This document shows positions 10,909 to 45,346 of a stretch of 64,000 nt of DNA, piece by piece. Below the pieces are notes generated by a model, which was given only the letters and a program-made list of their open reading frames with translations, searched no databases and had not been told where the DNA came from. The position numbers were made by a program, and so were the translations under genes. The DNA is from Thermoanaerobaculia bacterium (GTDB taxonomy: Bacteria > Acidobacteriota > Thermoanaerobaculia > Multivoradales > UBA5704), in contig JBAPYB010000416.1 of assembly GCA_049284515.1 (NCBI GenBank), forward strand, positions 3,582 to 67,581, in the 5' to 3' direction. The first letter of the stretch is position 1, and every line of letters begins with the position of its first letter.

Positions 10909-11300
10909 GGGCGGGCTGGAGTCTCAATGCCAACCACTACCCACGCCAGCACGGCGCAAGCCACGGCAGCAAACACAACCGATGCAACCACATCCTTCGA
11001 CGACCGATAAACTCTAAGTATTCGGCGTAAATGTTCCCCTTTCGAACCGCGCTCCTCCAGTCTTTGCTCTTCGACGGCCCGCGCTTGAAACCAACCAACA
11101 CAGTCCGCCAAGAATGTCAAGATGACTCCAACCGCTAAAAGGGACAGATACGTCAACCGCACTCCCCCGCGAACCCCATCGCTGGTCATCAAATTGACAG
11201 CGCTTGCCAAAAGTATTACAGCCAAAACATCATAGAACCGCCGGCTCAAACTAAAGACCAGCACTATCAGTGCAAACCAGAATTCTGCTAACATCCTCAC
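10794..11300 (-). CDS. Small integral membrane protein, last gene of the island operon
   Basis: 168 aa with about 4 hydrophobic helices. Its last ~38 codons read antisense through the 3' end of the Uma2 gene, so the native C-terminus is uncertain. Confidence 0.5.
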   Translation of the reverse strand: MRMLAEFWFALIVLVFSLSRRFYDVLAVILLASAVNLMTSDGVRGGVRLTYLSLLAVGVILTFLADCVGWFQARAVEEQRLEERGSKGEHLRRILRVYRSSKDVVASVVFAAVACAVLAWVVVGIETPARPQLKTSASRISSPGSKGVVSTSPAESLATRRSRLPRRR

Positions 11301-11303
11301 ATT

Positions 11304-12641: not shown

Positions 12642-12661
12642 AGGGGCACTCACAATGGTCG

Positions 12662-15977: not shown

Positions 15978-16140
15978 AAGCTAGCCAACGTTAACGTTCT
16001 TGCAGCGCTTCTCGCAGAAGTCCTTTTCACCTTGTAAAACAACACCCTCAGAGGCAGCAATACGGCTTATGAAAGGACTCCAGCAGAGAATGAGCGCTTT
16101 TCTGGGTCTCATGGATGACCACCAAATCTGCGAGGTCGGC

Positions 16141-21667: not shown

Positions 21668-21683
21668 CGCTTACCTCCAGACT

Positions 21684-23099: not shown

Positions 23100-23113
23100 G
23101 TCAACTCCTTGCC

Positions 23114-23746
23114 TCAGCCATTCTCCATGATGCGCTGAAATTTCTTTGCTGTCACGGACCTTGGAAGCGTCACTCCTACCCAGAAGAAGAGAAACGCCGC
23201 CAGGAGAGAAGTCAATAGAATGAAAAGGCCGAGAACGAGGCCGCCAAGCCAGCTTCGCAAGGCCCAGGCGGCAGGAAGGAACTGCTTGGCGAGCTCGACC
23301 TCATTGGTCGGCTGAAAGATAGCCCTGGGCAGGCCGATGCCTGAAAGGATGCACGCGACGGCGAACAGCAGGAACAACGCATTGAACCAGGACTTCGATT
23401 CTCGGTCGGCGGCAATGGCACGCGCGTTCATGGCTGAGGTCCAGCGATACCAACCCGCGAGCCCCATACCCATGAAGAGACTGATCAGAGCCCACACAGA
23501 GAGAAATAGCCATTTCTGGCTGGCTACGAACTCAGGGCGGATCAAGCCGCTTGAGCTCGTGTCGATCGGGCCGAGAAAGCGCCCCGTTATCGCGTTGACC
23601 TGGTTTGGCAACAAAGTCGTGTAGATGCTGAACATAACCGACAAGATCGTTGCGATTGAGGCTGCCACGTTGAAAACGGCGTCGAGCTTGCGCTGGTTGG
23701 CCACAGAAATCTCCTCACGCGTAAGCGCGGAACAAAATCGAGACAA
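23114..23746 (-). CDS. Integral membrane protein, first gene of the island operon
   Basis: 210 aa with about 4 TM helices. TTG start; an alternative GTG start lies at 23704. Confidence 0.6.
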   Translation of the reverse strand: MSRFCSALTREEISVANQRKLDAVFNVAASIATILSVMFSIYTTLLPNQVNAITGRFLGPIDTSSSGLIRPEFVASQKWLFLSVWALISLFMGMGLAGWYRWTSAMNARAIAADRESKSWFNALFLLFAVACILSGIGLPRAIFQPTNEVELAKQFLPAAWALRSWLGGLVLGLFILLTSLLAAFLFFWVGVTLPRSVTAKKFQRIMENG

Positions 23747-23815
23747 CAGCCCTCAAGAGAGGACGGGATCCCAGGCCTCTACATGTTCATTTAGGCACAG
23801 AGCACTCGTAGCCCT

Positions 23816-23844
23816 AGTATTCCACGCAGCGACGGGCTGGTCAA
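23816..23844 (-). promoter_or_regulatory. Candidate sigma-70 promoter of the island operon
   Basis: The minus strand reads TTGACC-17 nt-AATACT about 70 nt upstream of the first gene. The match is weak. Confidence 0.25.
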
Positions 23845-24072
23845 GGCTTCAAGGTCAGGCTAAAAATAGTTACGCATCGAAATATTGCAATGCTAGGCTA
23901 CGACGCTGGCCGCCCCTCTGTTCTAACCCCTGAAGACACCAGCCAAGTGGCTTTGGTTAGACGGATTGGACGCCGCAGGTGCTCGTGCTCCCGGCCCCTC
24001 CCGGCCCCTCCTTTACCTGTAAGCAACCCCGGTTCCGTGCTATGGTCCCCTGTCGCTTCCGGAGGGAACCCG

Positions 24073-27086: not shown

Positions 27087-27244
27087 CTCCCCAACCGCTT
27101 GAATCCAAAAAACCGGATCGTCTCCGTTTTTCTGGACGAACTGTCCGAAAAGTGTGAGAAAATCAGGGTTTAGGACGGATTCAAAATGTCGTTGGCGTGG
27201 CATAGAAAGTGCTTTATCCGCTCGTGGATCAGAGTCCTTTCTCC

Positions 27245-30057
27245 ATGACGCGGCTTCGCAATCTTCGACTGGCGCTCTCCCTTGCGCTCGCCATGGCAGT
27301 GGTGGCCTTGGGCGGCTTGAGCGTCGCCCGGAAGGTCCATAGCTTCCAGGCGCTGGGATTCGAGGTCACTCCCCAGGCCGGCGGCGTCGTGGTGAGCTCG
27401 GTGCAGATCCCCAAGACGGGACTGCGGCCGGGGGACGAGATCCTCACCGTCAACGGTCACGAAGTGCCGACCCGGGACCAGCTCGTGGAGGGGTTGCGCG
27501 AACGGCCGGCCAGCGAGCTCGGTTTCACCCGCGGCGACCAGTTCCTCCGCCTCCAGTACCACCGGCCGCCGCTCCAGATCGACTTCCCCTACCTGATCTT
27601 CTGCCTGATCTCCGTCGTCTACCTGGGGATCGGGCTCTATACCCTGCTGCGCCAGAAGGACGGCCAGGGATTTCTCTTCTACCTCTGGTGCCTGACCTCG
27701 GCGGCGCTCTACCTGTTCACTCTGGCGCCGCCGCCCGGCGCGGCCCGCACTCTGATCTACCTCGGCGACGAGCTCGCGCGACTGCTGCTGCCGGTGCTGA
27801 CGCTCCATCTGTTCCTGGTTTTCCCGACGCCGTTGGCCTCTGCGGCTACTGCGGCTACGCCGGAGACCAGAACCGCGGGCTGGATTCGCCGGCTGACTCC
27901 GTTCTTCTACCTGCCGGCGGCGGCGATGATGGCCCTGCAGCTCGACATGGTGCTCAACCACGGGCACATGGTGTTCGGCAAGGTCACGCCGGCGCGGCTC
28001 GCGGCCCTCGACCGCATCGAGCTGCTCTACTTCGCCGTCCTGCTGCTGGCGGCGGTCGGCGTCCTCTTCTGGCGCCTCCGCCGCGGCGCGGCCTGGGAGC
28101 AGCACCGCCAGATGCAATGGATGGCGTGGGGCGTCGCCTGCGGCTACCTACCGTTCCTGGCCCTGTACTTTGCCCCGCTCGCCCTGCACCTTCAGCCGTC
28201 GCAGCTCCTGACCTCGGCCGCCGTGCTCCCCCTGGGGCTGGTGCCGCTGACCTTCGCCTACGCCGTCCTGCGCTACAAGCTGTGGGACATCGAGGTCATC
28301 GTCCGCGACACGATCTCGCTGACGCTGACGCTGCTCCTCGGGATCATCGGCTTCTCGCTGGTCGACCTGGCGATCAACCACGGCATCTCCAAGGAGCTTT
28401 CCCTCGCCCGCAACCTGCTGTCGTTCCTCTCGGGCCTGGGCATCGCCGGCCTGCTGGTGCCCACCCGCGGCGCCATCTCCTCGGCGTTGGAGCGCATCCA
28501 CTACCGCGACACCTTCGGCAAGCGCAAGGCGCTGACGGGCCTCGGCCGCGAGTTGCTCCAGGAGCGCGATCTCGGACGCCTGTGCTCGGCCCTCCTCGAC
28601 CGCATTCAGGAAGCGGTGGACGTCGAGGCCACGAACCTCTATCTGCTCCAGGGGGAGGCTCTGGCGGTCATCCGGCCGGAGCCGGGTCTGCCCGGCCGGG
28701 TGCCGCTCGACGTCCTGGGCCTGGATCTCTGGACCCGGGACTTCGAGCGTCTCTCCGGCGTCGGCGTCTCCATGCCGGCCGAGTATCCCCTGCCCGGACG
28801 GTTGTTCGCGGCCGGCTACCGCTACGCCTTCCCGCTGACCGTGCGCGGCCGCGGCATCGGCATCGCCCTCGCCGGCTTCAAGCGCGACCACATGCCGCTC
28901 AACAGCGAGGACACGGACCTCATCCGCCACCTGCTCAACCAGGCGGCGCTCGCCATCGAGAACGCCCAGCTCGTGGGCCAGCTCCAGCTCCAACTGGAAG
29001 AGGTCCGCCAGCTCCAGAGCTACACCGAGGGGATCTTCGAGTCTTCCCCGGCCGGCATCGCGGTGCTGGACGGCGAGCGCCGGTTGCAGTCGGCCAACAG
29101 CGCTTTCGCCGGCATCGTGGGCCGCAGCCGCGACGAGGTCTCGGGCCTCAGCCTGGAAACCGTGCTGCCCGTGCAGCCGCTACCCGCTCCCGGCGAGGGG
29201 CCGGTCGAGGCGCGCTGGAGCGACGCCCAGGGGCGCGAGCGCCATCTCCAGCTCTCGCTCGCCTCCTTCGAGCACGGCTGGCGCCAGGGGCTCTACGTGC
29301 TGGTGGTGCACGACGTCTCGGAGCGGGTGGCGATGGAAAACGCACTGCACGAGAAGGATCGCCTGGCGGCCCTCGGCATGCTGGCAGCCGGCGTCGCCCA
29401 CGAGGTCAACACGCCGATCACCGGCATCTCCAGCTACGCCCAGATGCTGCTCCAGGAGACGGCGCCGTCGGATCCGCACTACGACATCCTGAAAAAGGTG
29501 GAGCGGCAGACGTTCCGCGCCTCGCGCATCGTCAACAACCTGCTCGACCACGCCCGCAGCCGCCAGAAGGAGCGGTCGCCGGTGGTCGTGGCGCCTCTGG
29601 TTTCCGAGTGTCTGGACCTCCTCGCCGAGCGGCTGAGCCAGAGCCACATCTCTCTACAGTGGACGCCATCTTCTGTTGACAGCAGCCGGCAGATCCAGGT
29701 GCTGGGCTGTGACGGCGAGCTCCAGCAGGTGTTCACCAACCTGATCGTCAACGCGGTGGACGCCATGCATGATACCGGCGGCCGGCTGACGGTCGAGCTG
29801 ACGGCGAATGACATGCTGGTAACTCTGCGGGTGAAGGACACCGGTCCAGGCGTGCCGGCCGACAAGCTCGAAATGATCTTCCAGCCCTTCTACTCGACCA
29901 AGCTCAGCCGCGGCGGTACCGGCCTGGGCCTGTCGATCAGCACCGAGATCGTCCAGCGCCACGGCGGCACCCTGCGGGTGGTGAGCCCGCCGGGAGAGGG
30001 GGCCTGCTTCCTGGTGGAGCTGCCCCGCTTCCAGGCTCCTCCTGGCAAAGTCACGGC

Positions 30058-30061
<4 letters not shown>
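27245..30061 (+). CDS. Sensor histidine kinase (PDZ, multi-TM, GAF/PAS, HisKA, HATPase)
   Basis: PDZ-like segment is GLRPGDEILTVNG. Many TM helices are present. H-box is AAGVAHEVNTPITGI. G-boxes are DTGPGVP and GTGLGLS. Confidence 0.85.
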
Positions 30062-31440
<1,379 letters not shown>

Positions 31441-34192: not shown

Positions 34193-34297
34193 AGCCTCTC
34201 ACCGCGGGCCCCTCCTGCGCCTATGCCCGTGCGACCCGCCGATGCGAGCCCACATCGTGACGCTGGACGCGGCACTTTAGCCGTTGGACCTGTAAAT

Positions 34298-34425
34298 CGC
34301 GCCGATGGACGTGTCCATCGAGCCAATGTGCGTGTCCATCGAGCCGAGGTGCGTGTCCATCGAGCCGAGGTGCGTGTCCATCACGGAAAAGTGCGTGTCC
34401 ATCGAGCCGATGTGTGCGTCCATCG
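34298..34425. repeat. 21-bp tandem repeat array A (about 6 units)
   Basis: The unit cgagccgaggtgcgtgtccat is repeated head to tail. It shares the gtgcgtg core with arrays B and C. Confidence 0.85.
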
Positions 34426-34546
34426 TCTGGAGTGGCGGGGAACCCGAAGAGGGTGTTTGATGGTCGGCGGCTTCAACCTGTCCACCAACCGGAACATTCC
34501 GCAGTACAGCTTGACCTCTCCGCTGAGGAGACGATACAACGCCTCC

Positions 34547-34840
34547 ATGAAGACTCTCACCTTCACCGAGGCAAGGAAGAACCTGAGTCACTGGCTGGCG
34601 GCCGCCGCCGGTGGCGATGACGTCGGCATCATCTTGGGAGCCAACGTCATCGCCCTCCGCAAGGTGGAAGTGGAATCTACGGACTTTGCACAGCGTGAAT
34701 ACGGCGCGACGCCAGAGCAGGTCGCCGCTTTGCAGGAGGCCGTGGACGACCGCTATCGCCGGCTCAGGCGCTCGGGGAAACTCAAGACGGTCCCGGTGGA
34801 CGAGCTGAGAGGGCTGCTTGAAGAAGCCTCTCTCCCTTGA
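34547..34840 (+). CDS. Phd/YefM-like antitoxin with no adjacent toxin
   Basis: 97 aa starting MKTLTFTEARKNLSHWL, a typical Phd/YefM N-terminus. Trimmed from ORF 34223..34840, whose N-terminus is a translation of array A. Confidence 0.6.
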   Translation: MKTLTFTEARKNLSHWLAAAAGGDDVGIILGANVIALRKVEVESTDFAQREYGATPEQVAALQEAVDDRYRRLRRSGKLKTVPVDELRGLLEEASLP

Positions 34841-34881
34841 CCGGGACCGGGGAACGCAGATCGAATCGTTCTAGAGAAGCC

Positions 34882-35313
34882 ATGAGCGCCCACGAGAGAG
34901 CCCACCACGTCGAGCCCATCACCGTCCGCTGGGGCGACATGGACTCGATGGGCCACGTCAACAACGCCAAGTACTTCACCTACAGCGAGTCGGCCCGCAT
35001 GAGCTACTTCGCGGCGGTGCGCATGAAGGAGCTCAGCGAGGCCCCGCAGCACGGGCCGGCCCTGGCCGCGGCCAGCCTCAACTTCCGCGCCCAGGTGCGC
35101 TACCCCGCCGAGCTCGAAGTCGCCACCCGCGTCACCGAAATCGGCCGCAGCAGCTTCAAGATGGAGTACGAGATCCTCTACCGCGACACCGACGACCGCG
35201 TCGCCGACGGCACCGGCGTCATCGTCTGGGTCGACTATGGAACGGGCAAGCCGATCCCGCTCCCCGAGAGCCTCAAGGAGGAGATCCGGCGATTCGAGGG
35301 GATGGCGTCGTAA
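34882..35313 (+). CDS. Acyl-CoA thioesterase (4HBT/YbgC-like hotdog fold)
   Basis: Contains VRWGDMDSMGHVNNAKYFTY, the characteristic thioesterase motif. 143 aa. Confidence 0.8.
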   Translation: MSAHERAHHVEPITVRWGDMDSMGHVNNAKYFTYSESARMSYFAAVRMKELSEAPQHGPALAAASLNFRAQVRYPAELEVATRVTEIGRSSFKMEYEILYRDTDDRVADGTGVIVWVDYGTGKPIPLPESLKEEIRRFEGMAS

Positions 35314-35354
35314 CGCCGACCGCTCAACTCGTCTCGCCGAGCGCGCTACTCGCG

Positions 35355-35720
35355 ACAAAGTGCACTGTATTTCAGTCGTTGGACGTGCACGTCGGAATAA
35401 TGAGCACGCACTTTGTCTCGAGAAGCATGCTCCTCGTGACAAAGAGCACGCTTCTCGTGATGAAGAGCACGCTTCTCGTGACGAAGAGCATGCTCTTTTC
35501 AAAAAAGAGCGTGCTCCTCGGGACGAAGTGCGTGCTCCTCGGAGAAAAGAGTGTGCTCTTCGGACCGCAGAGCATGCTCCTTTCAAAAAAGAGCGTGCTC
35601 CGCGGGACAAAGAGCATGCTCCGCGGAGAAAAGAGCGTGCTCCGCGGACCGAAGAGCGTGCTCATTTCAAAAAAGTGCGTGCTCCTCGGAGAAAAGAGCA
35701 TGCTCTTCGTCACAAGGAGC
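35355..35720. repeat. 21-bp tandem repeat array B (about 15-17 units, core GAGCRYGCTC)
   Basis: Units such as gagcacgcttctcgtgacgaa and gagcatgctccgcggagaaaa are repeated head to tail. All six frames are open across the array. Confidence 0.9.
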
Positions 35721-35889
35721 GGTACTGTCCTAGTTTGATTTTCCCCCGGGAATTCGCCCCGTTTCCGCCCTGTTTGCGGTACCTTCCTCCGTAGGGGGAG
35801 GGGCCATCCTTCTCCCGCCCAAACCAGACGGCCCGGCGGTGTGCGCGAACACGTCCGCCGAGCCTGAGCCCAGCAGGAGGACTAACCCC

Positions 35890-36336
35890 ATGCCGGACCT
35901 AGCACGGAAGTCTATCGCGTCCAGTCCGCCCCCATCCCCACCGCCTGAAAAGGCCGTCTCTCCGCCCATCATCGACCCGGAGCACTTCGAGGACTTCATG
36001 GTGTTCCGCGAGACCTTCATGGTCTTCTTTCCGGACCGCAGGGCCAACGGCGAAATGAGGGGTTTCGCTCGTCTGCTTTTCGAGATGGTTATCGAGACGT
36101 GGGGCGGATGGCCGGATCACCCGGAGGGCATCTTTCCCGCCGAGCTGCGCGCTGCCGTGGCAGACATGCGGCACCTACAGGGCGCCATGTCGAATTGGTG
36201 CGGCCCGGCCTTCACGGCATCGGGCGAGTACGAAACCCGCCTTGCAGGAGTCGGCGCCAGCATCGCGCTCGCCGTGGGCGAGCTGGCAGACCGCTTGGAA
36301 GTGGAGCTGGACTCCTGGCAGGGCAAGCCGTCATGA
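35890..36336 (+). CDS. Hypothetical protein (transposon passenger)
   Basis: ORF 35839..36336 with probable start at MPDLARK. ATGA overlap with the next gene. Confidence 0.45.
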   Translation: MPDLARKSIASSPPPSPPPEKAVSPPIIDPEHFEDFMVFRETFMVFFPDRRANGEMRGFARLLFEMVIETWGGWPDHPEGIFPAELRAAVADMRHLQGAMSNWCGPAFTASGEYETRLAGVGASIALAVGELADRLEVELDSWQGKPS

Positions 36337-36725
36337 GTTGGAATCCCGCCGCCGACCGCAAGCGCCTTGCCCCCTTCGGGACCTACGATCCCGAGCGGTA
36401 CCGCGTCACCGTTCACGACACCTTCCAGCAATACAAGCTCCGCATGGCGGCGACTCAGATTCGGAGCGGCATGTCCGTGCCCGAGTTCCTACTCTTCGCG
36501 GCGGAGTACACCATTGCCCACCATCGCGAGCTGCGCCACTTCGCGGCAGTCTTCCGCAAGGGCGCCCGGGAGATCGCCGTAGCTGGCGCCAAGCCTGTGA
36601 ATCCCTCTCAGTACGTCTCCACCCCGGAATCGGAGCGGGAACGCAATCGCTACTCCGCCCTCTGTCACTTCTGCGCGTGGGCGGGAGAGAAGCTCATCCG
36701 CCGGGGAAAGGAGGAACAAGGGTGA
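36333..36725 (+). CDS. Hypothetical protein (transposon passenger)
   Basis: 130 aa starting at MSWNPAADRK. Coupled to its neighbours by ATGA upstream and GTGA downstream. Confidence 0.5.
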   Translation: MSWNPAADRKRLAPFGTYDPERYRVTVHDTFQQYKLRMAATQIRSGMSVPEFLLFAAEYTIAHHRELRHFAAVFRKGAREIAVAGAKPVNPSQYVSTPESERERNRYSALCHFCAWAGEKLIRRGKEEQG

Positions 36726-37165
36726 AGACGGCGAGCTTTACCGTGCATGCCGATGTCCGGCAGTCCGCGAGATGGAAGCAGGCGGCAGAGGGGGAAGGCT
36801 ATCCCTCAGTCGGCGGATGGCTCGCCGTGGCAGCGGACCGCCACCTGCAAGCCGTGGCACGTAGCGGACGGCCCGTCCCTCTGGCTTGGCGTCTGGGGAG
36901 CTTCAACGTCCGCCTGGAGGGCGGCGAGCTGGCGCGGGTCCGGGGCCACGTCTCGCCGCCGTTCGGTTCCTTCGCAGGGACGGATAAAGGCCCGGCAAGG
37001 TACGCCGGACGCGGGCGGCATCCGCTGGTGTTCCTGCCAGACTGCCGCATCATCGCCACCCTTCGCAGCTACCGCGAGTGCAAGACGTTGGCGGCAGAGA
37101 TCGCCCCCGCCCTGATTCGCGGCGAGCTTCCGGACCCTGCCGCCATCCTCAAGCATCACCTATAA
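36722..37165 (+). CDS. Hypothetical protein (transposon passenger)
   Basis: 147 aa from a GTG start (VKTASFTVHADV). Translationally coupled to the upstream gene. Confidence 0.5.
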   Translation: MKTASFTVHADVRQSARWKQAAEGEGYPSVGGWLAVAADRHLQAVARSGRPVPLAWRLGSFNVRLEGGELARVRGHVSPPFGSFAGTDKGPARYAGRGRHPLVFLPDCRIIATLRSYRECKTLAAEIAPALIRGELPDPAAILKHHL

Positions 37166-37217
37166 ACCACCACTGCGAGCCAGTCCTTCGGGGCTGGCTC
37201 GTGCTACTTTAGGAGCC

Positions 37218-37454
37218 ATGCCCATGCGCCCGAAACGTTCCGCCGATCCCGTCAAGGCTGCTCACCAGCTATACCTAGAGATCATCGGGGAAGCCCCCGT
37301 CCAGCCCATGCCGGAGAACACTCCGGCCGCCGTCGCCGTGCGCCGTGGCGCGGCTGAGGGGGGCCAGAAGCGAGCGGCCAAGCTCACCCCCGAGCGACGG
37401 CGAGAGATCGCCCAGAAGGCCGCCGCGAAGCGCTGGAAAAAGCCCTCCCCGTAG
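37218..37454 (+). CDS. Small basic protein, possible DNA-binding protein
   Basis: 78 aa. The C-terminus GGQKRAAKLTPERRREIAQKAAAKRWKK is a pattern common in phage and plasmid small proteins. Confidence 0.5.
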   Translation: MPMRPKRSADPVKAAHQLYLEIIGEAPVQPMPENTPAAVAVRRGAAEGGQKRAAKLTPERRREIAQKAAAKRWKKPSP

Positions 37455-37622
37455 TCCCCCGCCCCTGGTAGAATCCCCTCCGGCGTGGCTAGGTTTGGCC
37501 ACCGAACGCCGGTTCCCCACAGCCGGCCCGCCGCGCCTTTCTTCCCTTCTCCCTTCTGTGGGCGGCGCCTGTGGGGGTGCTTCATCGCCAAGTGGCCCGG
37601 AGATCCGGCAGCGATTCAGTGC

Positions 37623-38159
37623 ATGGTCAACATGCTCGCGGGTGAGTCTCCGCCTAGCATACGGGACGCCGCCGCCCGGTGTTGTCGTGGAATGTCCGGA
37701 GATCCGAAGAAGCATATTGAACGACTTCGCAGACGATACCGCACGCTTGCCAAGCGCGGTAAGCTTCCCCTGCCAGAAACTCCCGCCTCCCGCTTGCAAG
37801 CCAAGGTCGCCGAACTCAGGGCGATGTACGAACATACCGATGCCAGGATCGAGGTCGCCCGGCGGGATCTCGTTTTGGCTGAAGACGAAGCCAAAGCACT
37901 TGGGCTCGACATCGAAGGTCCAAAACTCCAGCCTGTTCTCGCGGCGCTAGATCTAACAAAGGACCGCCTGGAATCCCTCACTATTTACCCTACCGAGATC
38001 GCCTATTCGCATTACAGGAACCAAGGACTAACTGTAGATCAGGCAGAAGAGCGGCTCATTCAAGAAACCGCGAAACTACAGTTAGTGAAAGAGCAAATCG
38101 AAATCACTCGGAAGGTCCGCGACCTCCGGGCCATCGCAGGGATTCCCTACCACGAGTAG
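37623..38159 (+). CDS. Coiled-coil protein, hypothetical
   Basis: 178 aa from MVNMLAGE. The start is uncertain (the ORF opens at 37485). Confidence 0.45.
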   Translation: MVNMLAGESPPSIRDAAARCCRGMSGDPKKHIERLRRRYRTLAKRGKLPLPETPASRLQAKVAELRAMYEHTDARIEVARRDLVLAEDEAKALGLDIEGPKLQPVLAALDLTKDRLESLTIYPTEIAYSHYRNQGLTVDQAEERLIQETAKLQLVKEQIEITRKVRDLRAIAGIPYHE

Positions 38160-38173
38160 TTCTTCCCCAGGCG

Positions 38174-38263
38174 TGGGGAAAACTATCCAAGAGCCTGGGG
38201 AAAACCTGTCTTTGGCTGGGGAAAATTGCCTGCTAAGCTGGGGAAAAGTTGCATCTTTTCCCC
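38174..38263 (+). promoter_or_regulatory. Iteron-like array: 4 direct TGGGGAAAA repeats plus 1 inverted copy
   Basis: Direct copies lie at 38174, 38196, 38217 and 38239 (spacing 22/21/22 bp). The inverted copy ttttcccc lies at 38256-38263. Confidence 0.7.
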
Positions 38264-38558
38264 GCTAAAATCAATGTTTGCAACGGTTTGAGTCTTACGG
38301 TAGGGTGGGGGAGTTGAGGGCCGACGGATTCAGGCCGCCGACCCTCAAGAGAAACCAGACGTAGCGGTCCGGAGTTCTCCGCAAGGGCAGTATACCTCCG
38401 GACCGCCGCGCCTCGAAAGGAGGACGCGGTGATTTACCCCAACTGCAAGCGCTGGAAGCTCATGTGGTCCCACCTTCCCCGGAAGGCGTAGCTACGCCCC
38501 GAGCGGGCCGGGGAGGGACTAGCGCCGCATTTTTCTTGAACTTACTTCGTTCTACCTA

Positions 38559-38587
38559 TTGACTTTCCCGACAAGGGCAAGCATAAT
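38559..38587 (+). promoter_or_regulatory. Sigma-70-like promoter of the transposase, possibly giving a leaderless mRNA
   Basis: TTGACT (38559-38564), a 17-nt spacer, then CATAAT (38582-38587). The transposase ATG at 38595 is 7 nt downstream of the -10 element. Confidence 0.45.
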
Positions 38588-38594
38588 GACGATT

Positions 38595-39437
38595 ATGGCA
38601 AACGTACTCAGCACCGCGAAGCGCTCCCAGATCGTCGCCGCCCTAATCGAGGGGATGGGCGTGAGGGCAACTGCCCGGATGGTCGATGTCTCGAAGGACA
38701 CCGTCTCGAAGCTCTCGCTTGAACTCGGGGAAGCCTGCATCCGGTACATGGACGAAACGCTGGTCAACCTGCCCTGCAAGCGGCTTCAGGTGGATGAGAT
38801 CTGGGGCTTCTGCTACGCGAAGCAGAAGAACGTCCCGGCCGCAAAACAGGGCACCTTCGGCTATGGCGATCTCTGGGCGTTCACGGGCGTTTGCGCCGAT
38901 ACGAAGATCATCCCCACCTTCCTGGTAGGCTCGCGGGACGCGGGGAGCGCCACGGCCTTCATGCAGGATCTCGCGGGCCGGCTGACGAACCGGATTCAGC
39001 TCACCACGGACGGGCACAAGATGTACCTGTCCGCGGTGGAGGACGCTTTCGGCGGCGGCGTTGACTACGCGATGCTGGTGAAGGTCTACGGGGACATCCC
39101 GCAGGGTGAGCACCGCTACAGCCAGCCGGACTGCATCGGCGCCCAGAAGCACGCCGTCTCGGGTTGCCCCGATGCCAAGCACGTGAGCACGAGTTTTATT
39201 GAAAGGCACAACCTGACCCTGAGGATGGGCATGAGACGCTATACCAGACTCACGAACGCCCATTCCAAGAAGCTCAGGAACCACACCGCCGCCCTGGGGC
39301 TGTTCCTCTGCTTCTACAACTTCTGCAAGATTCACACGACCTTGCGCGTCACGCCCTGCATGGCGGCCGGCGTTACGTCCCGCGTGTGGGAAATCGCGGA
39401 CCTAGTCAAGCTCCTGGACCGGCCGGCCGCGGCCTAA
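38595..39437 (+). CDS. IS1-family DDE transposase (single-ORF type)
   Basis: N-terminal HTH is RSQIVAALIEGMGVRATARMVDVSKDTV. Also present: QVDEIWGFCYAKQKN, LTTDGHKMY, and ERHNLTLRMGMRRYTRLTNAHSKKLRNH...YNFCKIHTTLRVTPCMAAG. Confidence 0.8.
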   Translation: MANVLSTAKRSQIVAALIEGMGVRATARMVDVSKDTVSKLSLELGEACIRYMDETLVNLPCKRLQVDEIWGFCYAKQKNVPAAKQGTFGYGDLWAFTGVCADTKIIPTFLVGSRDAGSATAFMQDLAGRLTNRIQLTTDGHKMYLSAVEDAFGGGVDYAMLVKVYGDIPQGEHRYSQPDCIGAQKHAVSGCPDAKHVSTSFIERHNLTLRMGMRRYTRLTNAHSKKLRNHTAALGLFLCFYNFCKIHTTLRVTPCMAAGVTSRVWEIADLVKLLDRPAAA

Positions 39438-39588
39438 CCAAGCCCAGCCGCGGCACGGTCTCAGGGGGTTGCCTTCAGGCCAGAACGGAGTATACATACA
39501 ATCAAACCGGAGTCCGGTCCCGTGCTACAATCCCCCTTACCCCCCGAGCGCAGTGCTCAGGGGTGTCTCCTTATGGGCGGAGGAAGCC

Positions 39589-39930
39589 ATGCTAAACTTA
39601 GAACTCGATGCTATCCTGTTCGAGAGAACGCCCGGGTGCTGGGTGGGGCAGTGCCTCCAATACGATATCGGGGCACAGGCAGAGTCGCTGCCGGATCTCG
39701 CCTACCAGCTCGGACGCGCCATAGCCGGCTACGCGGTTATCTGTGAAGAGACCGGGGTAGAGCCGTTCACAGCTCTGGGGTCCGCCCCCAGGGAGTACTG
39801 GGATCTCTGGCGCCGGGCGACACTCACCGTAGTATCACAACAAGAGCCGCGATTCCGGCTACCTAAGGCCGTGTCCGTGCCCGAAACACGCATGAAGGTG
39901 GCAGAGAGCGAGAAGAAGAAGGCGGCTTGA
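39589..39930 (+). CDS. Hypothetical protein, possibly HicB-like antitoxin fold
   Basis: 113 aa from MLNLELDAILFERTPGCWVGQC. The stop lies next to the start of the following ORF. Confidence 0.4.
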   Translation: MLNLELDAILFERTPGCWVGQCLQYDIGAQAESLPDLAYQLGRAIAGYAVICEETGVEPFTALGSAPREYWDLWRRATLTVVSQQEPRFRLPKAVSVPETRMKVAESEKKKAA

Positions 39931-39931
39931 G

Positions 39932-40210
39932 ATGACCTATCCTATGGCGCCGGCCTTGACTCTCCGGCAGTTCATAGACAAGACAGTCCCGCACGGAGTC
40001 GTTGAACGTTCCGTACCTGGGGGTATGGTCGGACCGCGAGGGGATATGAAGATTAGCTATCTCGAAATCGCCCGCCCCGGCGCGATTCGCGTGACTGAGC
40101 CTCTTCCAGAGAATGAGGAATCTCTGCTCGCCTGGGACACAGTAAGGCGTCTTTGCCGCCAGCTAGAGATTCAGCCCCGCGACTTGGACATCGGCCTTCC
40201 ACTCGATTGA
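39932..40210 (+). CDS. Hypothetical protein
   Basis: 92-aa ORF immediately after the previous gene (TGAGATG junction). Confidence 0.4.
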   Translation: MTYPMAPALTLRQFIDKTVPHGVVERSVPGGMVGPRGDMKISYLEIARPGAIRVTEPLPENEESLLAWDTVRRLCRQLEIQPRDLDIGLPLD

Positions 40211-40274
40211 GCCCCGACCCACATCCCCCGGGGCGGCCCCTACCGCCGCCCCGGATTCAAACTAGGACAGTACC

Positions 40275-40575
40275 CAAGGAGCATGCTCTTCGTCACGAAA
40301 AGCGTGCTCTTCATCACGAGAAGCGTGCTCTTTATCGCGAGGAGCATGCTCTTTATTGCGAGTAGCGTGCTCTTTGTCACGATGAGCATGCTCATCATCA
40401 CGAGAAGAGTGCTCATCATCACGAGAAGCGTGCTCATCGTCGCGAGGAGAGCTCTCCTCAAAACGACGAGCGTGCCTCTTGTTCGAAACAGCGCGCTCCT
40501 CGAGACGATGGGAGGGCTCCACGAGGCGTGGAGCGGGCGTACCGAGCCGAGAGGCACGCTCATCGAAGGAAACCT
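40275..40575. repeat. 21-bp tandem repeat array C (about 13-14 units), inverted relative to most of array B
   Basis: Example units are gagcatgctcttcgtcacgaa and aagcgtgctcttcatcacgag. The reverse complement of ~35420-35482 matches 40279-40341 with a few mismatches. Confidence 0.9.
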
Positions 40576-40599
40576 GGCATCCTGAGCCCGGCGGCAGAC

Positions 40600-40735
40600 T
40601 TGTGGGCCCGGCTGGGGCCAAGGGCGCCCTTGGCAGGGCGGATTGAATGGACCGAATGACGCCTACCCAGGGCTTCCGCCGGCTGTCGCCGGCTCCGCCC
40701 TGGGCTACAAATCTGCCGCCCTCCGGGCTCGCGGT
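40600..40735. repeat. REP/MITE-like intergenic element, family 2
   Basis: Shares ccaagggcgcccttggcagggcgga and tgggctac..tctgccgccctccgggctcg with 45845-46155. Confidence 0.55.
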
Positions 40736-40779
40736 ATTGCAAACTGGAACGGTCTCGACTCGCCGAACGTAAACGGAGA

Positions 40780-41829
40780 GTGAAGCCTTTCTTTCGTAGC
40801 TCCCTCCGCGTCCTCGCCGTCACTGTCGTGACTCTCGCCGGCCTCCTGGGGCTGACCGCAGCCGCGATCACCCAGCCGACGTTCAGCATCACACGGCGGC
40901 CGGACGGCCCTCGCGCCGATCCTGAGCGTCTGCGGCGGCACGTGGAGCTGCTCACCCGGGAGGTATGGCCGCGGGACAGCGACCATCCGGAGAACCTCGA
41001 CCGTGCAGCGGTCTATCTGCGAGATCAATTTGCGGCCAGTCGCGTGCGGGTGACAACACCGGACTTCCATGTCCACGGCCGGACCTATCGCAACGTCGTC
41101 GCGTCCTTCGGCCCGGAGGCGGGGCCGATTCTGATCGTCGGCGCCCACTACGACTCTTTCGGCGGCTTCGGTGCCAACCCGGGAGCGGACGACAACGCCA
41201 GCGGCACGGCCGGCCTCCTCGAGCTGGCTCGTCTTCTGGCCGGTCACCGCCTGGAGCAGCGGGTGGATCTCGTGGCATTCGCCAACGAGGAGCCGCCATA
41301 CTTCGGCTCGGCCCAGATGGGAAGCGCCGTTCACGCTCGGTCGCTGGCGGGGCGGGAGGTCCGGGGAATGATCTGCCTGGAGATGATCGGCTACTTCACG
41401 CCACGCCAGCCCTCACCGAACTGGTTATTCCGGTTCCTCTACCCGAACCGGGGCGACTTCATCGCCGTCGCCGGCCGCTGGGCCGACCGCGAGCTCACCC
41501 GCCAAGTCAAACGCGCCATGCGCGGCGGCAGCGACCTCCCTGTCGTGAGCTTCACCGCTCCCCGGTCCGCAGGTCTGGACGGCTCCGACCAGATCAACTA
41601 TTGGGACCGCGGCATTCCTGCCGTGATGGTGACCGATACCGCCGACATCCGGAATCCTCACTATCACAGCCCTTTGGACACGGCGGAGACGCTGGACTAC
41701 CCCCGGATGGCTCGGGTGGTGGATGGCGTGACGAACGCGGTGCTGGCGATTTGTGGAAAGACCGCTCAGCATGCTGCCAGCATGCTACACTCTGAACATG
41801 GCGAATCTCCAGGTCAAGAACCTTCCTGA
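40780..41829 (+). CDS. M28-family aminopeptidase
   Basis: Signal/TM segment at the N-terminus. Contains GAHYDSFGG...GADDNASGTAGLLELARLL and NEEPPYFGS, which are M28 zinc-ligand contexts. Confidence 0.85.
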   Translation: MKPFFRSSLRVLAVTVVTLAGLLGLTAAAITQPTFSITRRPDGPRADPERLRRHVELLTREVWPRDSDHPENLDRAAVYLRDQFAASRVRVTTPDFHVHGRTYRNVVASFGPEAGPILIVGAHYDSFGGFGANPGADDNASGTAGLLELARLLAGHRLEQRVDLVAFANEEPPYFGSAQMGSAVHARSLAGREVRGMICLEMIGYFTPRQPSPNWLFRFLYPNRGDFIAVAGRWADRELTRQVKRAMRGGSDLPVVSFTAPRSAGLDGSDQINYWDRGIPAVMVTDTADIRNPHYHSPLDTAETLDYPRMARVVDGVTNAVLAICGKTAQHAASMLHSEHGESPGQEPS

Positions 41830-42031
41830 GCCCCTTCATACGCGCCTTCGGCGCTATGCGCGGCGGCATCACCGGACGCTCAGCGACGTTGCGCTAGCCG
41901 CTCTTGAGAGAGAGATGAACCGCTGCGAATGGTATGAGCGCTTGGCCCGGCGCCCGCCTACCGACCTCGGGGTCTCGGCGGCCTCGCTGCTTGAGGAAGA
42001 GCGGGGGCAGCGGCAGCGAGATCTCGATTGA
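41798..42031 (+). CDS. VapB/FitA-like antitoxin
   Basis: 77 aa starting MANLQVKNLPEPLHTRLRRYARRHHRTLSD, a typical FitA/VapB N-terminus. 4-nt overlap with the PIN gene. Confidence 0.7.
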   Translation: MANLQVKNLPEPLHTRLRRYARRHHRTLSDVALAALEREMNRCEWYERLARRPPTDLGVSAASLLEEERGQRQRDLD

Positions 42032-42429
42032 GCCGTTTTGTCATCGATGCCTCTGCGGCCGTGGAGTACCTTCTCCGCACTCCTCTCGGCCTCAGGCTCC
42101 AAGACCTCGTCGACGGCTCCTTCTTGATGGCGCCCGCTCTCTTGGATGTTGAAGTGCTCTCCGTATTGAGGCGTGCCGTTCTACACAGAGGACTCTCGGA
42201 AGCCAGGGCGGGATTGGCTCTCGAAGATCTCAGCGAATGGCCCATGGACCGTATACCGCACACAACCCTCATTAAAGAAGCCTGGCGGCATCGGCACAAC
42301 GTCAGTGCCTACGATGCATTCTATGTCGCCGTGGCCCGCCTCTACGAAGCGCCTCTCCTCACTACGGACGGTCCTCTTTCCCGCGCACCAGACCTCGGTA
42401 TCGACATACGCAATCTACGGATGGAGTAA
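42028..42429 (+). CDS. vapC: PIN-domain toxin VapC
   Basis: 133 aa. Has the FVIDASAAVEYLL N-terminus and AYDAFYVAVA...LLTTD motifs. Confidence 0.85.
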   Translation: MSRFVIDASAAVEYLLRTPLGLRLQDLVDGSFLMAPALLDVEVLSVLRRAVLHRGLSEARAGLALEDLSEWPMDRIPHTTLIKEAWRHRHNVSAYDAFYVAVARLYEAPLLTTDGPLSRAPDLGIDIRNLRME

Positions 42430-42607: not shown

Positions 42608-45346
42608 ATGGAAATAGGCGACCATCACCTTTTGCTGACTTTCCCTGAAGGGTGGTCGGCTGAGCAGAAGGGCGATTTTTTTGAGAGATTTGTCTCAGAG
42701 ATACTCAAGCCGATGCGATATTCGGTTGTCCAGCGCCTCAGGGTAACGGGAATGGAAATCGATCTTCTCGCAAGGAATGAGGATCAACCTACTACGATCT
42801 TGATAGAATGCAAGGCTCATAGAGATCCCATTTCCGCGGAAGTTATCTCCAAGCTCTTGGGAAATGTTACGCTCAGAAGGGCAGACAGCGGCTGGCTCTT
42901 TACTGCTAGCGACCTGACGAAGGATGCGAGAGGTCAGTGGGAGGAGATCCAAGCTGATCCTGAGCTGCGACGAAGGTTCACGTGGTTCTCACCACATCGG
43001 ACGCTTGATGTCTTAATTAGCCAGAAATCTGTTGTCGACCCACGAGATTTTGAGAGCGCGCTAAATGGCCGCGTAGTCGGCGATTGGACCCTAATCCTCT
43101 CCCCATCTGGCAAATCATGGCTTGCACAAATTGTGGAAGATGGACTTCCGGCTAGATTCAGTGTTTTTGATGCCAGCTCGGGTTTTCCGCTTTCAGCTAA
43201 AGCAGCCCAGGAAGTGGCTAATTCGTCGGCACGCTTTAGCTCCCTAAGCTTTCTCGACGTGGGGGCCGATGACCCTAAACGATACGCGACGCTACCGCCT
43301 CGTGCACCTGTCGCAAGAGTCATCTCTGGGGATGCTTGGGATGATCTACGGCCTTCACGACCACAAGACTTTGTGGGCCGCGACGATCTTATAGGCGATA
43401 TTTTCACATTCTTTGACGAAGTGCGTCAGAGCCGAACCTCGACTCGGATTTTTGCAGTGCAAGGCCCAAGCGGTTGGGGTAAGAGTTCTTTGCTTTTGAA
43501 ACTTGGCGATGTAGCACGGAAAAAGTCTAGATCATATTCACTGACAGCTATAGATACGCGATCAGCCACCAACTCAGCCTTCGTGAGTGAGGCTGTTAGT
43601 ATCGCTTTTGAAGAAGCGCGAGGGAAGGAACTACTGCCTGGAGCTACTAAACTTGAGGTTAACAGTCTTCGCGACCCACTCGATTCAAGTGGATTAGTGG
43701 CCGCGCTCAAAGTTCTCGCCGCTAATCGGACATGCATCGTTTTGGTATTTGACCAATTTGAGGAGCTTTTCGCAAAAGAAGAACTCTTCGAGACGTTTAA
43801 TGCTGTCCGAGATTTAAGCTTTGATATTGACGCGCGACAGGTTCCTATGATTTTGGGCTTCGCTTGGAAGACAGACGTATCGCTGCCACAACAACATCCC
43901 GCTTATCACTTGTGGCATCAGCTCACCGATAGAAGAAGGACCTTCAAGATTAGGGAATTCGGAAAGGGTGATGTAGGAAGATTGATAACCAAAGCTGAAA
44001 GGGCCTCAGGCAAGACGCTTAGCCGCGCCCTAAGGGCTCGCCTAATGGAACAATGCCAGGGATTGCCATGGCTATTGAAGAAACTTTTGGTACATGTCTT
44101 CCATCGAGTATCAGAGGTGCAATCGCAGTACGCACTACTGGAGAGAGAACTGGACGTAGAACTTCTCTTCAAGGAGGATCTGTCAGTGCTCAAGGAAGAG
44201 CAGATCAGATGTCTGAAGTTCGTCGCCAACCGCGCCCCAGTTCCGGTTGCAGAGGTGGAGGAAAACTTTTCGAGAGATACCACAAACCTCTTGATTAACG
44301 ACCATCTGCTTGTACGGAGCGGAATGAACTATGTTGTATATTGGGATATTTTCCGTGATTATTTGGTGGATGAAAAAGTGCCACAAATTCCGTGGGCAAA
44401 GACCTTTCAGCGCGATCCTCAAATGGCTGTAAGGGCCCTCCAAAAGCTGGCCGAGATCGGACCTTCGGCGTCATCTGCTTTGGCCGTTGCCCTTGGTCTC
44501 CGAGAGAAGCCGATTTTCAATATCGTAGGAGACCTTCTTGCATTACAGTTAATAGAACCCGATTCAGATGGGCTTTACACTCCAGCTTCTCATTTGCCTG
44601 ACCTTAGACCCGTAACAATCGCCCGCCACGTGCAAGGGCAACTTTCAAGGCATGTTGTGACGCGCGAATTGTTCTCAAGATGGGAGAGAGGACGGTTAAT
44701 CGATAGTCAGACATGGTATTCGTTCTTCAAAGATGCCCAGCCTCGGACTTCCACATTTTCGCAAAACACCGTTCATCAATATGCAAGCAACTTCCGCAGA
44801 TGGTTGTTGTTCGCCGGGCTTCTCGAACAGGATAGCCGTTGGCTAAGTCGACCTATGGGAAGTGGCTCACTAATGGGGAGTTTGGCTTCACAGAAAACGG
44901 CAGCAGGAGTCTTCTTGGGAACTGCTTCTCCTCCCTCTCTTGAGAGATTATTCATAGTTCTGAAGGAAAGCCGTGGAGTACTTGGAAGATCAGAGATTGC
45001 ACGGCAAGGGCTTCGAAATACTGCAACGGATGCTCTCGCCCTGGGGCTGGTATCAAATAGTCGCGATGGCCTGGTGCGGCTAATAGAGGAGGACTTATCC
45101 GTTGGTGAGTTGACAGCTAGAGCCAAGAGTGCGGTGCTTCGGCAACCGGCGATTCAGGCGGCTGCGCGAGCGAAGAATAGTGACCCTGCCGGCCAGGACA
45201 CGACCGCCATTGGGAGAGAGGTCGAAGAAGAGATGGGAGCGAGTTGGAAACCAAGTTCAGCAAAGCGCTATGGCAGTGGCCTACTGAGATATCTTGCTTG
45301 GGCATCGGCATCGGTTTCGCGCAAGGACGACGGGATGGTTGGCTAG
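42608..45346 (+). CDS. Mrr-like restriction endonuclease domain fused to a STAND-like P-loop NTPase
   Basis: 912 aa in low-GC DNA (sample line 43% G+C). N-terminus is FERFVSEIL...GMEIDLLA...ILIECKAH (D...ExK). Walker A is VQGPSGWGKSSLLLK and Walker B is IVLVFDQFEELF. The C-terminus is long and helical or wHTH-like. Confidence 0.7.
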   Translation: MEIGDHHLLLTFPEGWSAEQKGDFFERFVSEILKPMRYSVVQRLRVTGMEIDLLARNEDQPTTILIECKAHRDPISAEVISKLLGNVTLRRADSGWLFTASDLTKDARGQWEEIQADPELRRRFTWFSPHRTLDVLISQKSVVDPRDFESALNGRVVGDWTLILSPSGKSWLAQIVEDGLPARFSVFDASSGFPLSAKAAQEVANSSARFSSLSFLDVGADDPKRYATLPPRAPVARVISGDAWDDLRPSRPQDFVGRDDLIGDIFTFFDEVRQSRTSTRIFAVQGPSGWGKSSLLLKLGDVARKKSRSYSLTAIDTRSATNSAFVSEAVSIAFEEARGKELLPGATKLEVNSLRDPLDSSGLVAALKVLAANRTCIVLVFDQFEELFAKEELFETFNAVRDLSFDIDARQVPMILGFAWKTDVSLPQQHPAYHLWHQLTDRRRTFKIREFGKGDVGRLITKAERASGKTLSRALRARLMEQCQGLPWLLKKLLVHVFHRVSEVQSQYALLERELDVELLFKEDLSVLKEEQIRCLKFVANRAPVPVAEVEENFSRDTTNLLINDHLLVRSGMNYVVYWDIFRDYLVDEKVPQIPWAKTFQRDPQMAVRALQKLAEIGPSASSALAVALGLREKPIFNIVGDLLALQLIEPDSDGLYTPASHLPDLRPVTIARHVQGQLSRHVVTRELFSRWERGRLIDSQTWYSFFKDAQPRTSTFSQNTVHQYASNFRRWLLFAGLLEQDSRWLSRPMGSGSLMGSLASQKTAAGVFLGTASPPSLERLFIVLKESRGVLGRSEIARQGLRNTATDALALGLVSNSRDGLVRLIEEDLSVGELTARAKSAVLRQPAIQAAARAKNSDPAGQDTTAIGREVEEEMGASWKPSSAKRYGSGLLRYLAWASASVSRKDDGMVG

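Follow-up and report, generated by a model that had tools for sequence, protein, structure and literature searches.

A dyad-symmetric 21-bp minisatellite split by an IS1-family transposon in a Thermoanaerobaculia bacterium

A 64,000-nucleotide stretch of a Thermoanaerobaculia genome (assembly GCA_049284515.1, contig JBAPYB010000416.1), hereafter the window, in whose numbering all positions are given and to which all searches within the source genome refer, carries a long run of palindromic 21-bp repeats that is split in two by a transposon. The locus raises the question of what such an array is, and of how a transposon came to lie within it. The first-pass annotation of this DNA had favoured phased binding sites for a dimeric protein, as in a centromere-like partition site or an iteron origin, and had kept a heptad-repeat protein as its alternative. 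We conclude, with a probability of about 0.6, that the array is a fast-evolving, lineage-specific, non-coding minisatellite of dyad-symmetric units that serves as a landing pad for transposons.

Anatomy of the array and its absence from close relatives

When the transposon and one copy of its 8-bp target duplication are deleted, the units fall into a single 21-bp register that runs from 35339 to 40572, and the interrupted unit is rebuilt as an intact GAGCATGCTCTTCGTCACGAA. The rejoined locus comprises 32 x 21 bp (672 bp), of which 23 units are well formed and nine, three at the left edge and six at the right, are decayed. The earlier expectation of about 30 head-to-tail units with a palindromic core, brought back into perfect register by this deletion as a head-to-head locus of about 650 bp, is therefore borne out; the two arrays placed at 35355–35720 and 40275–40575 are real, although their true limits are 35339 and 40572. 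Tandem Repeats Finder agrees, reporting a left block at 35424–35721 (period 21, 14.2 copies; alternatively period 84, 3.4 copies, 81% matches, score 356) and a right block at 40280–40446 (period 21, 8.0 copies, 82% matches).

The unit itself is ACGAAGAGCATGCTCTTCGT, a perfect 20-bp palindrome, plus one joining base (C or G). It had been described as a conserved 10-bp core, GAGCRYGCTC, with a variable 11-bp spacer, and of this description the core stands but the plain variability of the spacer does not, as the spacer is itself half a palindrome. Because the unit is a near-complete palindrome, its orientation is visible in only a few bases. There are 11 exact matches to the core in the window (1.26 expected), every one within the arrays, and when one mismatch is allowed there is no excess in the window outside them (13 seen, 12.2 +/- 3.2 expected), so that the search for the unit elsewhere that had been suggested yielded only chance matches in the rest of the window. 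The array has a GC content of 0.53 and only short A6 runs. Its central positions vary as CATG, CGTG and CACG only, with CGCG in the oldest edge units, a pattern consistent with transitions at CpG.

The register layout begins with three degenerate units (35339–35401), the first of which, GAGCGCGCTACTCGCGACAAA, is recognisable and in register; 35339–35364 is 85% complementary to 40347–40372. The five units of the left arm (35402–35506) are mostly in the reverse form (spacer CTCGTGAYRAA) and are an inverted copy of the right arm, as judged by inverted identity, complementarity and spacer orientation: the block 35423–35506 matches the right arm at 74 of 84 positions when inverted and at no more than 58 of 84 when compared directly, and 35424–35498 is 95% complementary to 40276–40350 across 75 nt. 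Next comes a central block of nine units (35507–35695), identified by Tandem Repeats Finder and subunit analysis as an 84-bp (4 x 21) higher-order repeat of four subunit types with the spacers CTCGGGACGAA, CTCGGAGAAAA, TTCGGACCGCA and YTTTCAAAAAA; the unit at 35486, which we have counted in the left arm, also belongs to this repeat (35486 to 35695), as its tenth member and a d-type subunit. The first-pass claim that most of the left array is the reverse complement of the right one thus holds for the four or five left units, which are close inverted copies, but not for 35507–35695, which is the diverged 84-bp repeat. The last unit of the left array had been assigned the orientation of the right array, and the fit of the spacers confirms this switch at approximately 35696: most units in 35423–35675 fit the reverse form better (two ties), whereas those from 35696 onward fit the forward form. 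Positions 35696–35720 hold one complete forward unit and GAGC, the first 4 nt of the unit split by the transposon. Beyond the transposon lie the right arm (40283–40446, defined by Tandem Repeats Finder, register and orientation), which consists of the remainder of the split unit and seven forward units (spacer TTCRTCACGAG), and six degenerate units (40447–40572) in which the 21-bp register is kept.

That these inverted arrays are an artefact of assembly is hardly credible. Short-read contigs of SRR27943067 match the window without mismatch at 34385–35387, 38776–40333 and 40656–42135, and the second of these, the junction contig L213, spans the right end of the transposon, the duplication and 2.4 units. 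What these contigs support is the two flanks and the junction of transposon and array, but not the array's interior, and the window assembly is possibly not independent of that run. They do end inside the array, which is what speaks for an artefact; however, the flanks and the junction are reproduced free of mismatches, the arms are only ~88–95% complementary and differ in unit composition, unlike a chimeric foldback read, and the layout of a transposon within a 21-bp array is also found in unrelated assemblies.

The array is flanked by genes encoding a 4HBT thioesterase (ending at 35313) and an M28 peptidase (starting at 40780), with an M14 carboxypeptidase gene upstream. Relatives were collected in a metagenome scan, which gave 80 loci with M14 orthologues, and the order M14–thioesterase(–M28) is kept in loci whose proteins are 74–91% identical. 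In the three closest loci that retain M28 (L122, L123 and L124) the spacer before M28 is 228–370 bp long, is unrelated in sequence, contains palindromes resembling repetitive extragenic palindromic (REP) sequences and lacks the 21-bp array; the gene upstream of M28 is that for the thioesterase in L122 and L123 and M14 itself in L124, where the thioesterase is missing. The M14, thioesterase and M28 proteins of these syntenic, array-less loci are about 81–91% identical, and only the last ~60 bp upstream of M28 can be aligned with relatives. As the array is missing from the closest syntenic loci, we conclude that it arose recently, is specific to its lineage and occupies a hypervariable spacer. 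Variation extends to the junction between M14 and the thioesterase, which in the window contains a second 21-bp array (34296–34425) and a Phd-like gene.

The array resembles bacterial minisatellites, or variable-number tandem repeats, in its head-to-tail units of tens of bp, its intergenic position, its presence/absence or variation among relatives, its homogeneous centre and decayed edges, and its block (84-bp) duplication. It has what defines that class, namely non-coding units of 10–100 bp that vary among relatives, the variation here being one of presence or absence. It differs in its near-perfect 20-bp palindromic units, in the orientation switch and in an exact 21-bp period that is common to unrelated non-coding arrays of the lineage. 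Nothing relevant to the core sequence, or to palindromic tandem repeats of 21 bp, came to light in the literature searched.

Once rejoined, the region, 710 nt in length, forms a single giant hairpin when folded (as DNA, -237 kcal/mol and z = -15.5; as RNA, -418 kcal/mol). The right arm alone is unremarkable (z = -0.5) and the central block, which folds on itself, is moderately structured (z = -3.6); from this we conclude that the giant hairpin stems from arm-to-arm complementarity. Since each unit can pair with its neighbours, the segment is liable to form hairpins or cruciforms, and since 21 bp is two helical turns, every dyad should lie on the same face of the duplex. In a wedge model, sequence-dependent bends add up at a period of 21.

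The degenerate edge units, the homogeneous central units and the 84-bp higher-order repeat point to growth of the array in place, which would have proceeded by duplication of units and of the 84-bp block through slippage or unequal exchange. A single inversion, which a template switch at the palindromic units could plausibly have caused, would have produced two head-to-head blocks and made the whole locus one long imperfect palindrome, the edges of which would then have decayed. The IS1-family element inserted, with its 8-bp duplication, 25 bp from the orientation switch, and by leaving the arms 4.5 kb apart may have stabilised the long palindrome. Its target could have been chosen by structure or by a protein coat; mere survival in neutral DNA is the alternative.

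The transposon and its insertion sites

The transposon is 4,554 bp long (35721–40274, + strand) and carries passenger genes; it is delimited by its inverted repeats, its duplication and a gene layout common to L214–L221. Its 18-bp terminal inverted repeats, GGTACTGTCCTAGTTTGA, are perfect, lie at 35721–35738 and 40257–40274 and are unique in the window, and the 8-bp target-site duplication CAAGGAGC is present at 35713–35720 and at 40275–40282, the right copy lying at the junction covered by L213. A DDE transposase of 280 aa is encoded at 38595–39437 (+ strand, from the ATG at 38595, the start being uncertain). By tblastn it is 54% identical to annotated IS1 family transposases; the NCBIfam model transpos_IS1 matches with E = 7e-13, under its curated cut-off of 100 bits, and the match to Pfam DDE_Tnp_IS1 is weak. 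Its homologues number in the thousands, and those named by their source are IS1 family transposases (70–94% identity), several of them from Thermoanaerobaculia. IS1 elements make 8–9-bp target duplications and have ends of the form GGnnnTG, and the inverted repeat here begins GGTACTG. We therefore assign the element to the IS1 family on a homologous DDE transposase together with terminal repeats and a duplication of the 8–9-bp class, and we take it to resemble the ISMhu11-like subgroup. It shares with that family the transposase, the GGnnnTG ends, an 18-bp inverted repeat and the 8-bp duplication, and differs from it by a run of small ORFs at the left end, by variable cargo and by its excess in period-21 arrays.

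The left-end module (35890–37454, + strand) consists of small ORFs of unassigned function at 35890–36336, 36333–36725, 36725–37165 and 37218–37454. Two of its products, OrfC and OrfB, were aligned with those of relatives, OrfC being 51–58% identical in four of them and OrfB 20–52%. The N-terminus of OrfC resembles a ribbon-helix-helix (RHH) motif, by eye only; no match to Pfam, NCBIfam or PDB was found for the left-end ORFs, and a single-sequence AF2 model of OrfC was poor (pLDDT 45). Between the ORF at 37485–38159 and the transposase, at 38174–38247, are four direct copies of TGGGGAAAA with spacings of 22, 21 and 22 bp (4 seen, 0.28 expected), flanked by inverted partial copies, TTTTCCCC, near 38161 and 38256. 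The arrangement looks like iterons or operators, and as it is missing from other copies of the transposon it is part of the cargo of this one.

Six relatives of the transposon (L214, L215, L216, L217, L218 and L221) were obtained from homologues at 77–81% identity that were picked only for lying on long contigs. All six have the same inverted repeat as the window transposon, a small-ORF run at the left end, variable cargo and a transposase, so that the family ranges from 3.8 to 5.9 kb; the 8-bp duplication is perfect in four of the six, agrees at 7 of 8 positions in L217 and was not found in L214. The cargo of the relatives includes PemK-like and Fic-like toxins, an M78 peptidase and helix-turn-helix (HTH) proteins. 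No match to the inverted repeat was found in viral contigs.

The sites at which these elements lie are what links the array to transposition. The window transposon lies in the 32-unit array, that of L216 in a 30-unit 21-bp array whose register is perfect across the element (duplication CGCCGACG), that of L215 in a 17-unit 21-bp array (duplication CCGCGTTG) and that of L221 among approximately ten decayed 21-bp units (duplication CAAGGAAG). The site in L214 is a 42-bp repeat present three times, and in L217 and L218 a repeat is absent. The arrays at these sites are unrelated in sequence and range in GC content from 0.51 to 0.78. Their register runs on across the inserted elements and they are not the same from locus to locus; they must therefore have existed before insertion and are not part of the element. 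Period-21 arrays make up ~0.15% of the sampled DNA of the lineage. With the window excluded, as it was chosen for its array, the probability that at least two or at least three of the six sites fall in such arrays is 3e-5 or 6e-8, respectively, and with only an assumed 12% intergenic fraction taken as targetable it is 2e-3 or 4e-5. We conclude that this transposon lineage is over-represented in period-21 arrays despite their unrelated sequences.

Two further observations were made at these sites. A hairpin begins immediately after the target duplication at two of them and within 16 bp at others, which we note as a lead only. In L214, a second and different IS1-family element (1580–2473) lies beside the same 42-bp repeat, with 113 bp between its end and the left end of the transposon, and this small repeat locus thus holds two IS1-type insertions.

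The period of 21 bp is not peculiar to the struck arrays. Related DNA amounting to 1.08 Mb contains 12 arrays with 3.5 or more copies and a period of 13 or more, and in 8 of these the period is 21. Their units are unrelated: that of L133 is ATGCCGCGTR with a variable part, that of L156 is CCGCCAGGGCTGGCGG, and L132, L154 and the second window array at 34296 each have their own. Several of the 21-bp arrays of the lineage have dyad cores, several adjoin toxin-antitoxin-like genes, and the four whose surroundings were examined (L132, L133, L156 and the window array at 34296) lie outside recognisable genes. In most of them GC content is flat across codon phases, unlike in the genes of these genomes. 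A preference for 21 bp in non-coding arrays cannot be explained by coding and points to a cause at the level of DNA, such as a bound protein, the phasing of the helix or some mutational process. The other 21-bp arrays of the lineage are mostly unstructured (z from -1.8 to +0.8), and so it is the 21-bp period, rather than hairpin formation, that is the common denominator. The emphasis that the first-pass annotation had placed on two helical turns receives indirect support from the recurrence of unrelated 21-bp arrays and from the preference of the transposon.

A wider reading is that non-coding tandem arrays with a two-turn period and dyad cores are a recognised feature in what is probably a Thermoanaerobaculia lineage, and that IS1-derived transposons with small accessory ORFs at the left end choose them through their periodicity or structure, or through a protein coat, and not through their sequence. 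We offer this only tentatively, and with it, just as tentatively, the view that the arrays turn over fast, are diverse in sequence and lie in hypervariable spacers beside toxin-antitoxin and defence genes. We know of no target preference for period-21 arrays described for IS1, and we take the known REP-targeting elements to belong to other families, such as IS3 and IS110, and not to IS1. The closest analogue of the landing-pad behaviour is provided by REPs and bacterial interspersed mosaic elements (BIMEs), which are extragenic palindromic units, sometimes clustered, that act as hot spots for specific insertion sequences (PMC1525189; PMC2817692) and that also resemble the array in hairpin potential. 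REPs occur as more than 100 dispersed copies per genome and have a family-specific sequence (PMC2817692). Like them, the array unit is an extragenic imperfect palindrome in the 20–40-bp range; it differs in that it is confined to one locus in the 64 kb examined, where no high dispersed copy number is seen, and in that the arrays struck by the transposon lineage are unrelated in sequence.

A scan of 185,579 genomes (596 Gb) for two cores 21 bp apart gave at least 120 matches, and those listed were for the most part single chance matches. Also among the matches listed were intergenic 21-bp arrays with the same GAGCRYGCTC core and unrelated spacers, in a deltaproteobacterial metagenome-assembled genome (next to tRNA-Arg), Verrucomicrobiae, Phycisphaerales and termite-gut Bacteroidales/Tannerella (L082, 6758–7194; L046, 6381–6653; L108, 2572–2740; L056, 4475–4807; L013, 2907–3102; L014, 5220–5597). 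We do not claim homology for a cross-phylum family of such arrays, as a chance of ~8e-5 per array, which is that of a given 10-mer family occurring in any rotation of a 21-bp unit, would, by a rough estimate, allow tens of them in 596 Gb. Two Firmicutes matches proved to be genuine His-rich coding repeats (EHAHDEE) that are unrelated to the array.

Weighing the explanations

Several points weigh against the reading of the array as a minisatellite and landing pad. The sample of insertion sites is seven independent ones, two of them without arrays, and survivorship in dispensable DNA, or a shared property other than the period, could contribute to the apparent preference. The wedge model gives the observed units no greater curvature than it gives their shuffles, so that simple intrinsic bending does not explain the preference of the transposon. 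The nine decayed units have kept the 21-bp register with no net indel. Information content is higher in the core (1.58 bits) than in the spacer (0.89 bits), and comparison of the four higher-order subunit types shows variation in 3 of 10 core columns as against 9 of 11 spacer columns (p = 0.03). A neutral repeat alone predicts neither the conservation of the core nor the kept register, and both fit a sequence-specific ligand. Together, core conservation and kept phase are a hint that both core and phase may be under some constraint.

A potential explanation that would invoke such a ligand is that the units are phased sites at which a DNA-binding protein, of the RHH or antitoxin-like type for instance, would bind as a dimer or a dimer of dimers and form a filament on one face of the DNA, as on plasmid centromeres and iterons, with the transposon targeting the complex. 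Judged from the sequence, binding by a dimeric protein is possible: the 10-bp dyad is perfect and the period exactly 21 bp and free of indels, the core is better conserved than the spacer, and the central positions change by transitions only. Several 21-bp arrays, moreover, adjoin small DNA-binding or toxin-antitoxin genes (Phd-like at window 34296–34425, HTH in L215, Phd/YefM in L216, and, in L132 and L156, ORFs that resemble AbiE-type toxin-antitoxin genes by eye only), and one protein conserved within the transposon family has an N-terminus that is possibly RHH-like. We nevertheless regard this explanation as unlikely. No candidate binding gene adjoins the ancestral array, the closest relatives do without the array, the core is not enriched elsewhere in the window, and recent substitutions between higher-order copies strike core and spacer about equally (7/80 and 10/88); unrelated units elsewhere would also each need their own protein, yet one transposon lineage strikes them all. 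The more specific analogy with a centromere or an iteron origin has the context against it. Plasmid centromeres and iterons (the parC sites of R1 and pSK41, bound by the RHH protein ParR; P1, RK2, R6K; the lambda origin) consist of 3–12 repeats of 11–22 bp at one or two helical turns, dyad-symmetric in the lambda iterons and in direct or inverted blocks, that adjoin the gene of the binding protein in a par or rep operon on a mobile replicon. Here 32 units, missing from close relatives, lie between conserved housekeeping-type genes. The array of repeated sites, at approximately two helical turns, is there, but the adjacent NTPase (ParA, ParM or TubZ) and binding-protein genes and the conservation expected of a partition site are not, nor are the adjacent rep gene, DnaA boxes and AT-rich unwinding element of an iteron origin. 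A check for a ParB-, RHH- or Rep-type gene had been proposed, and no par or rep gene was found with Pfam among the larger neighbouring ORFs (those in 24.9–35.3 kb and 40.8–52.4 kb, plus four ORFs at 21.7–24.9 kb), or with NCBIfam and PHROGs, which were searched with the transposon ORFs, the Phd-like gene and the STAND gene described below only. The larger ORFs in 24.9–35.3 and 40.8–52.4 kb encode a carboxypeptidase-regulatory-domain protein, a histidine kinase, a sigma-54 response regulator, M14, the Phd-like protein, the thioesterase, M28, VapBC, a STAND NTPase and ABC transporter parts, with one large ORF matching nothing. There are no DnaA boxes near the array, the nearest DnaA-box-like 9-mers being at 21159 and 49900, and the array showed no similarity to plasmids and phages (blastn) or to viral contigs (pattern scan). 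Neither is it a CRISPR, whose repeats are 23–50 bp long with unique spacers of similar length and usually cas genes: its core is 10 bp, its 11-bp spacers recur as a higher-order unit, and no Cas-family domain was found among the neighbouring ORFs scanned.

The array might instead act as RNA, at the 3' end of the thioesterase message, where a very long stem-loop could terminate transcription or protect the message in the manner of REPs and BIMEs. It starts ~5 bp past the thioesterase stop codon on the same strand as both flanking genes, the rejoined region folds to an extreme degree, and more distant relatives have hairpins of inverted 7-bp tandem arrays directly 3' of the M14 peptidase stop codon. 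Even so this seems improbable, as the other 21-bp arrays are unstructured, so that hairpins leave the common period unexplained, and the closest relatives do without the array; promoter and terminator scans gave results at chance level, with terminator-like sites numbering one per strand, not above shuffled sequence and neither of them at the 3' end of the array, and Rfam at the gathering threshold matched nothing in the entire 64 kb (no tRNA, rRNA, riboswitch or known small RNA). That the locus encodes, or once encoded, a heptad-repeat protein is very improbable, whether in the EHAxRDx frame that had been suggested, for which each arm is read toward the junction, or in a (K/R)S(M/V)L(F/L)(V/I)T frame. 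The latter is open across the entire ancestral locus on both strands (35400 to 40585 on the + strand), but the openness follows from a unit that is free of stops; its GC3 of 0.78 would suit a gene, but its GC1 of 0.43 and GC2 of 0.39 are atypical of local genes. The EHAxRDx frame has a GC3 of 0.39 and is interrupted, in the rejoined sequence, by one TAG on the + strand (at 40363) and by three TGA codons on the - strand. In the core register GC content per codon position is 0.78/0.43/0.39, compared with about 0.62–0.70/0.44–0.51/0.78–0.95 in neighbouring genes. Substitutions in the right arm avoid one codon phase (11/14/2 mismatches), but this reduces to 5, 4 and 1 variable sites per phase, which is non-significant (about p = 0.1 by site count), and the periodicity is absent in the centre. 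Against 5.8 billion proteins the EHA frame had no homologues and the SMLFVTK frame a single match, P0001, which we judged to be a coiled-coil coincidence; neither open frame matched a Pfam family. Relatives lack the locus, and a coding constraint would not yield a perfect DNA palindrome. An uninterrupted ORF with local codon usage and homologues was thus not found, and the array is very probably not a gene. Just as far from likely is a remnant of a non-autonomous foldback or MITE-like (miniature inverted-repeat transposable element) transposon with tandem transposase-binding repeats at its ends. The whole locus is indeed one imperfect palindrome of subterminal-like repeats and is an insertion relative to close relatives, and eukaryotic Foldback (FB) transposons, which are multicopy and make target duplications, likewise have long inverted arms of short tandem repeats; however, a second copy is absent from the window, ~1 Mb of related DNA and plasmid, phage and viral collections, and the outer edges have no terminal duplication and decay gradually, as in arrays grown in place.

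Genomic surroundings and implications

Near the array are several features that we record in their own right. Between it and the M28 promoter region, at 40590–40720, are REP-like GC-rich palindromes, with a 16-bp perfect palindrome, CCAAGGGCGCCCTTGG, at 40618–40633; the spacers of L122, L123 and L124 contain related but different palindromic elements. More distant relatives (M14 ~35% identical) have long hairpins formed by 7-bp tandem arrays in inverted pairs, such as (GTGAGAA)n ... (TTCTCAC)n (L180, 11388–11518; L198, 9071–9155 and 2924–3036; L197, 3407–3451; L196, 2325–2882). In three loci they follow the M14 stop codon directly, and 7 bp is the commonest tandem repeat on those contigs.

The second 21-bp array of the window (34296–34425) has ~6 units of ATCGAGCCGAGGTGCGTGTCC, which differs from the main unit, and lies 120 bp upstream of an orphan Phd/YefM-like gene (34547–34840; Pfam E = 0.001, N-terminal 25 aa only). 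Array and gene together form a ~680-bp segment that is an insertion, as relatives have the thioesterase 9–24 bp after M14. In other lineages this junction holds an opposite-strand ORF, a pair of small ORFs resembling a toxin-antitoxin module or a small gene.

Directly 3' of the M28 gene is a VapBC module (41753–42429; FitA-like RHH and PIN), followed at 42608–45346 by a gene for a 912-aa, defence-like protein in which an Mrr-type restriction endonuclease domain is fused to a STAND NTPase, within an island of 49–56% GC (~42–46 kb). Directly upstream of M14, at 27209–31440, are genes for a PAS histidine kinase and a sigma-54-dependent response regulator (NtrC type, Fis HTH); no sigma-54 promoter-like sequence was noticed by eye near the array, and no pattern search was run. 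Farther away, 11000–24000 is a long stretch of low GC content (0.51–0.59, against ~0.67), the first half of which has a strongly negative GC skew, and is probably a foreign island; the four ORFs scanned at its 3' end have no Pfam match except a weak tubulin-like one at 21684–23099.

Taken alone, the array is no more than a curiosity, a palindromic minisatellite of unusual regularity that no close relative has kept, and what is of interest is mainly the possible targeting of a transposon by geometry. If this is true, it is a mode of target choice that is, to our knowledge, undescribed for IS1, and the arrays would be safe havens or insertion hot spots. Confirmed, a choice of target by repeat geometry would bear on how mobile elements find harmless sites and on why spacers such as this one are hypervariable, with a possible bearing on programmable or structure-directed insertion tools.

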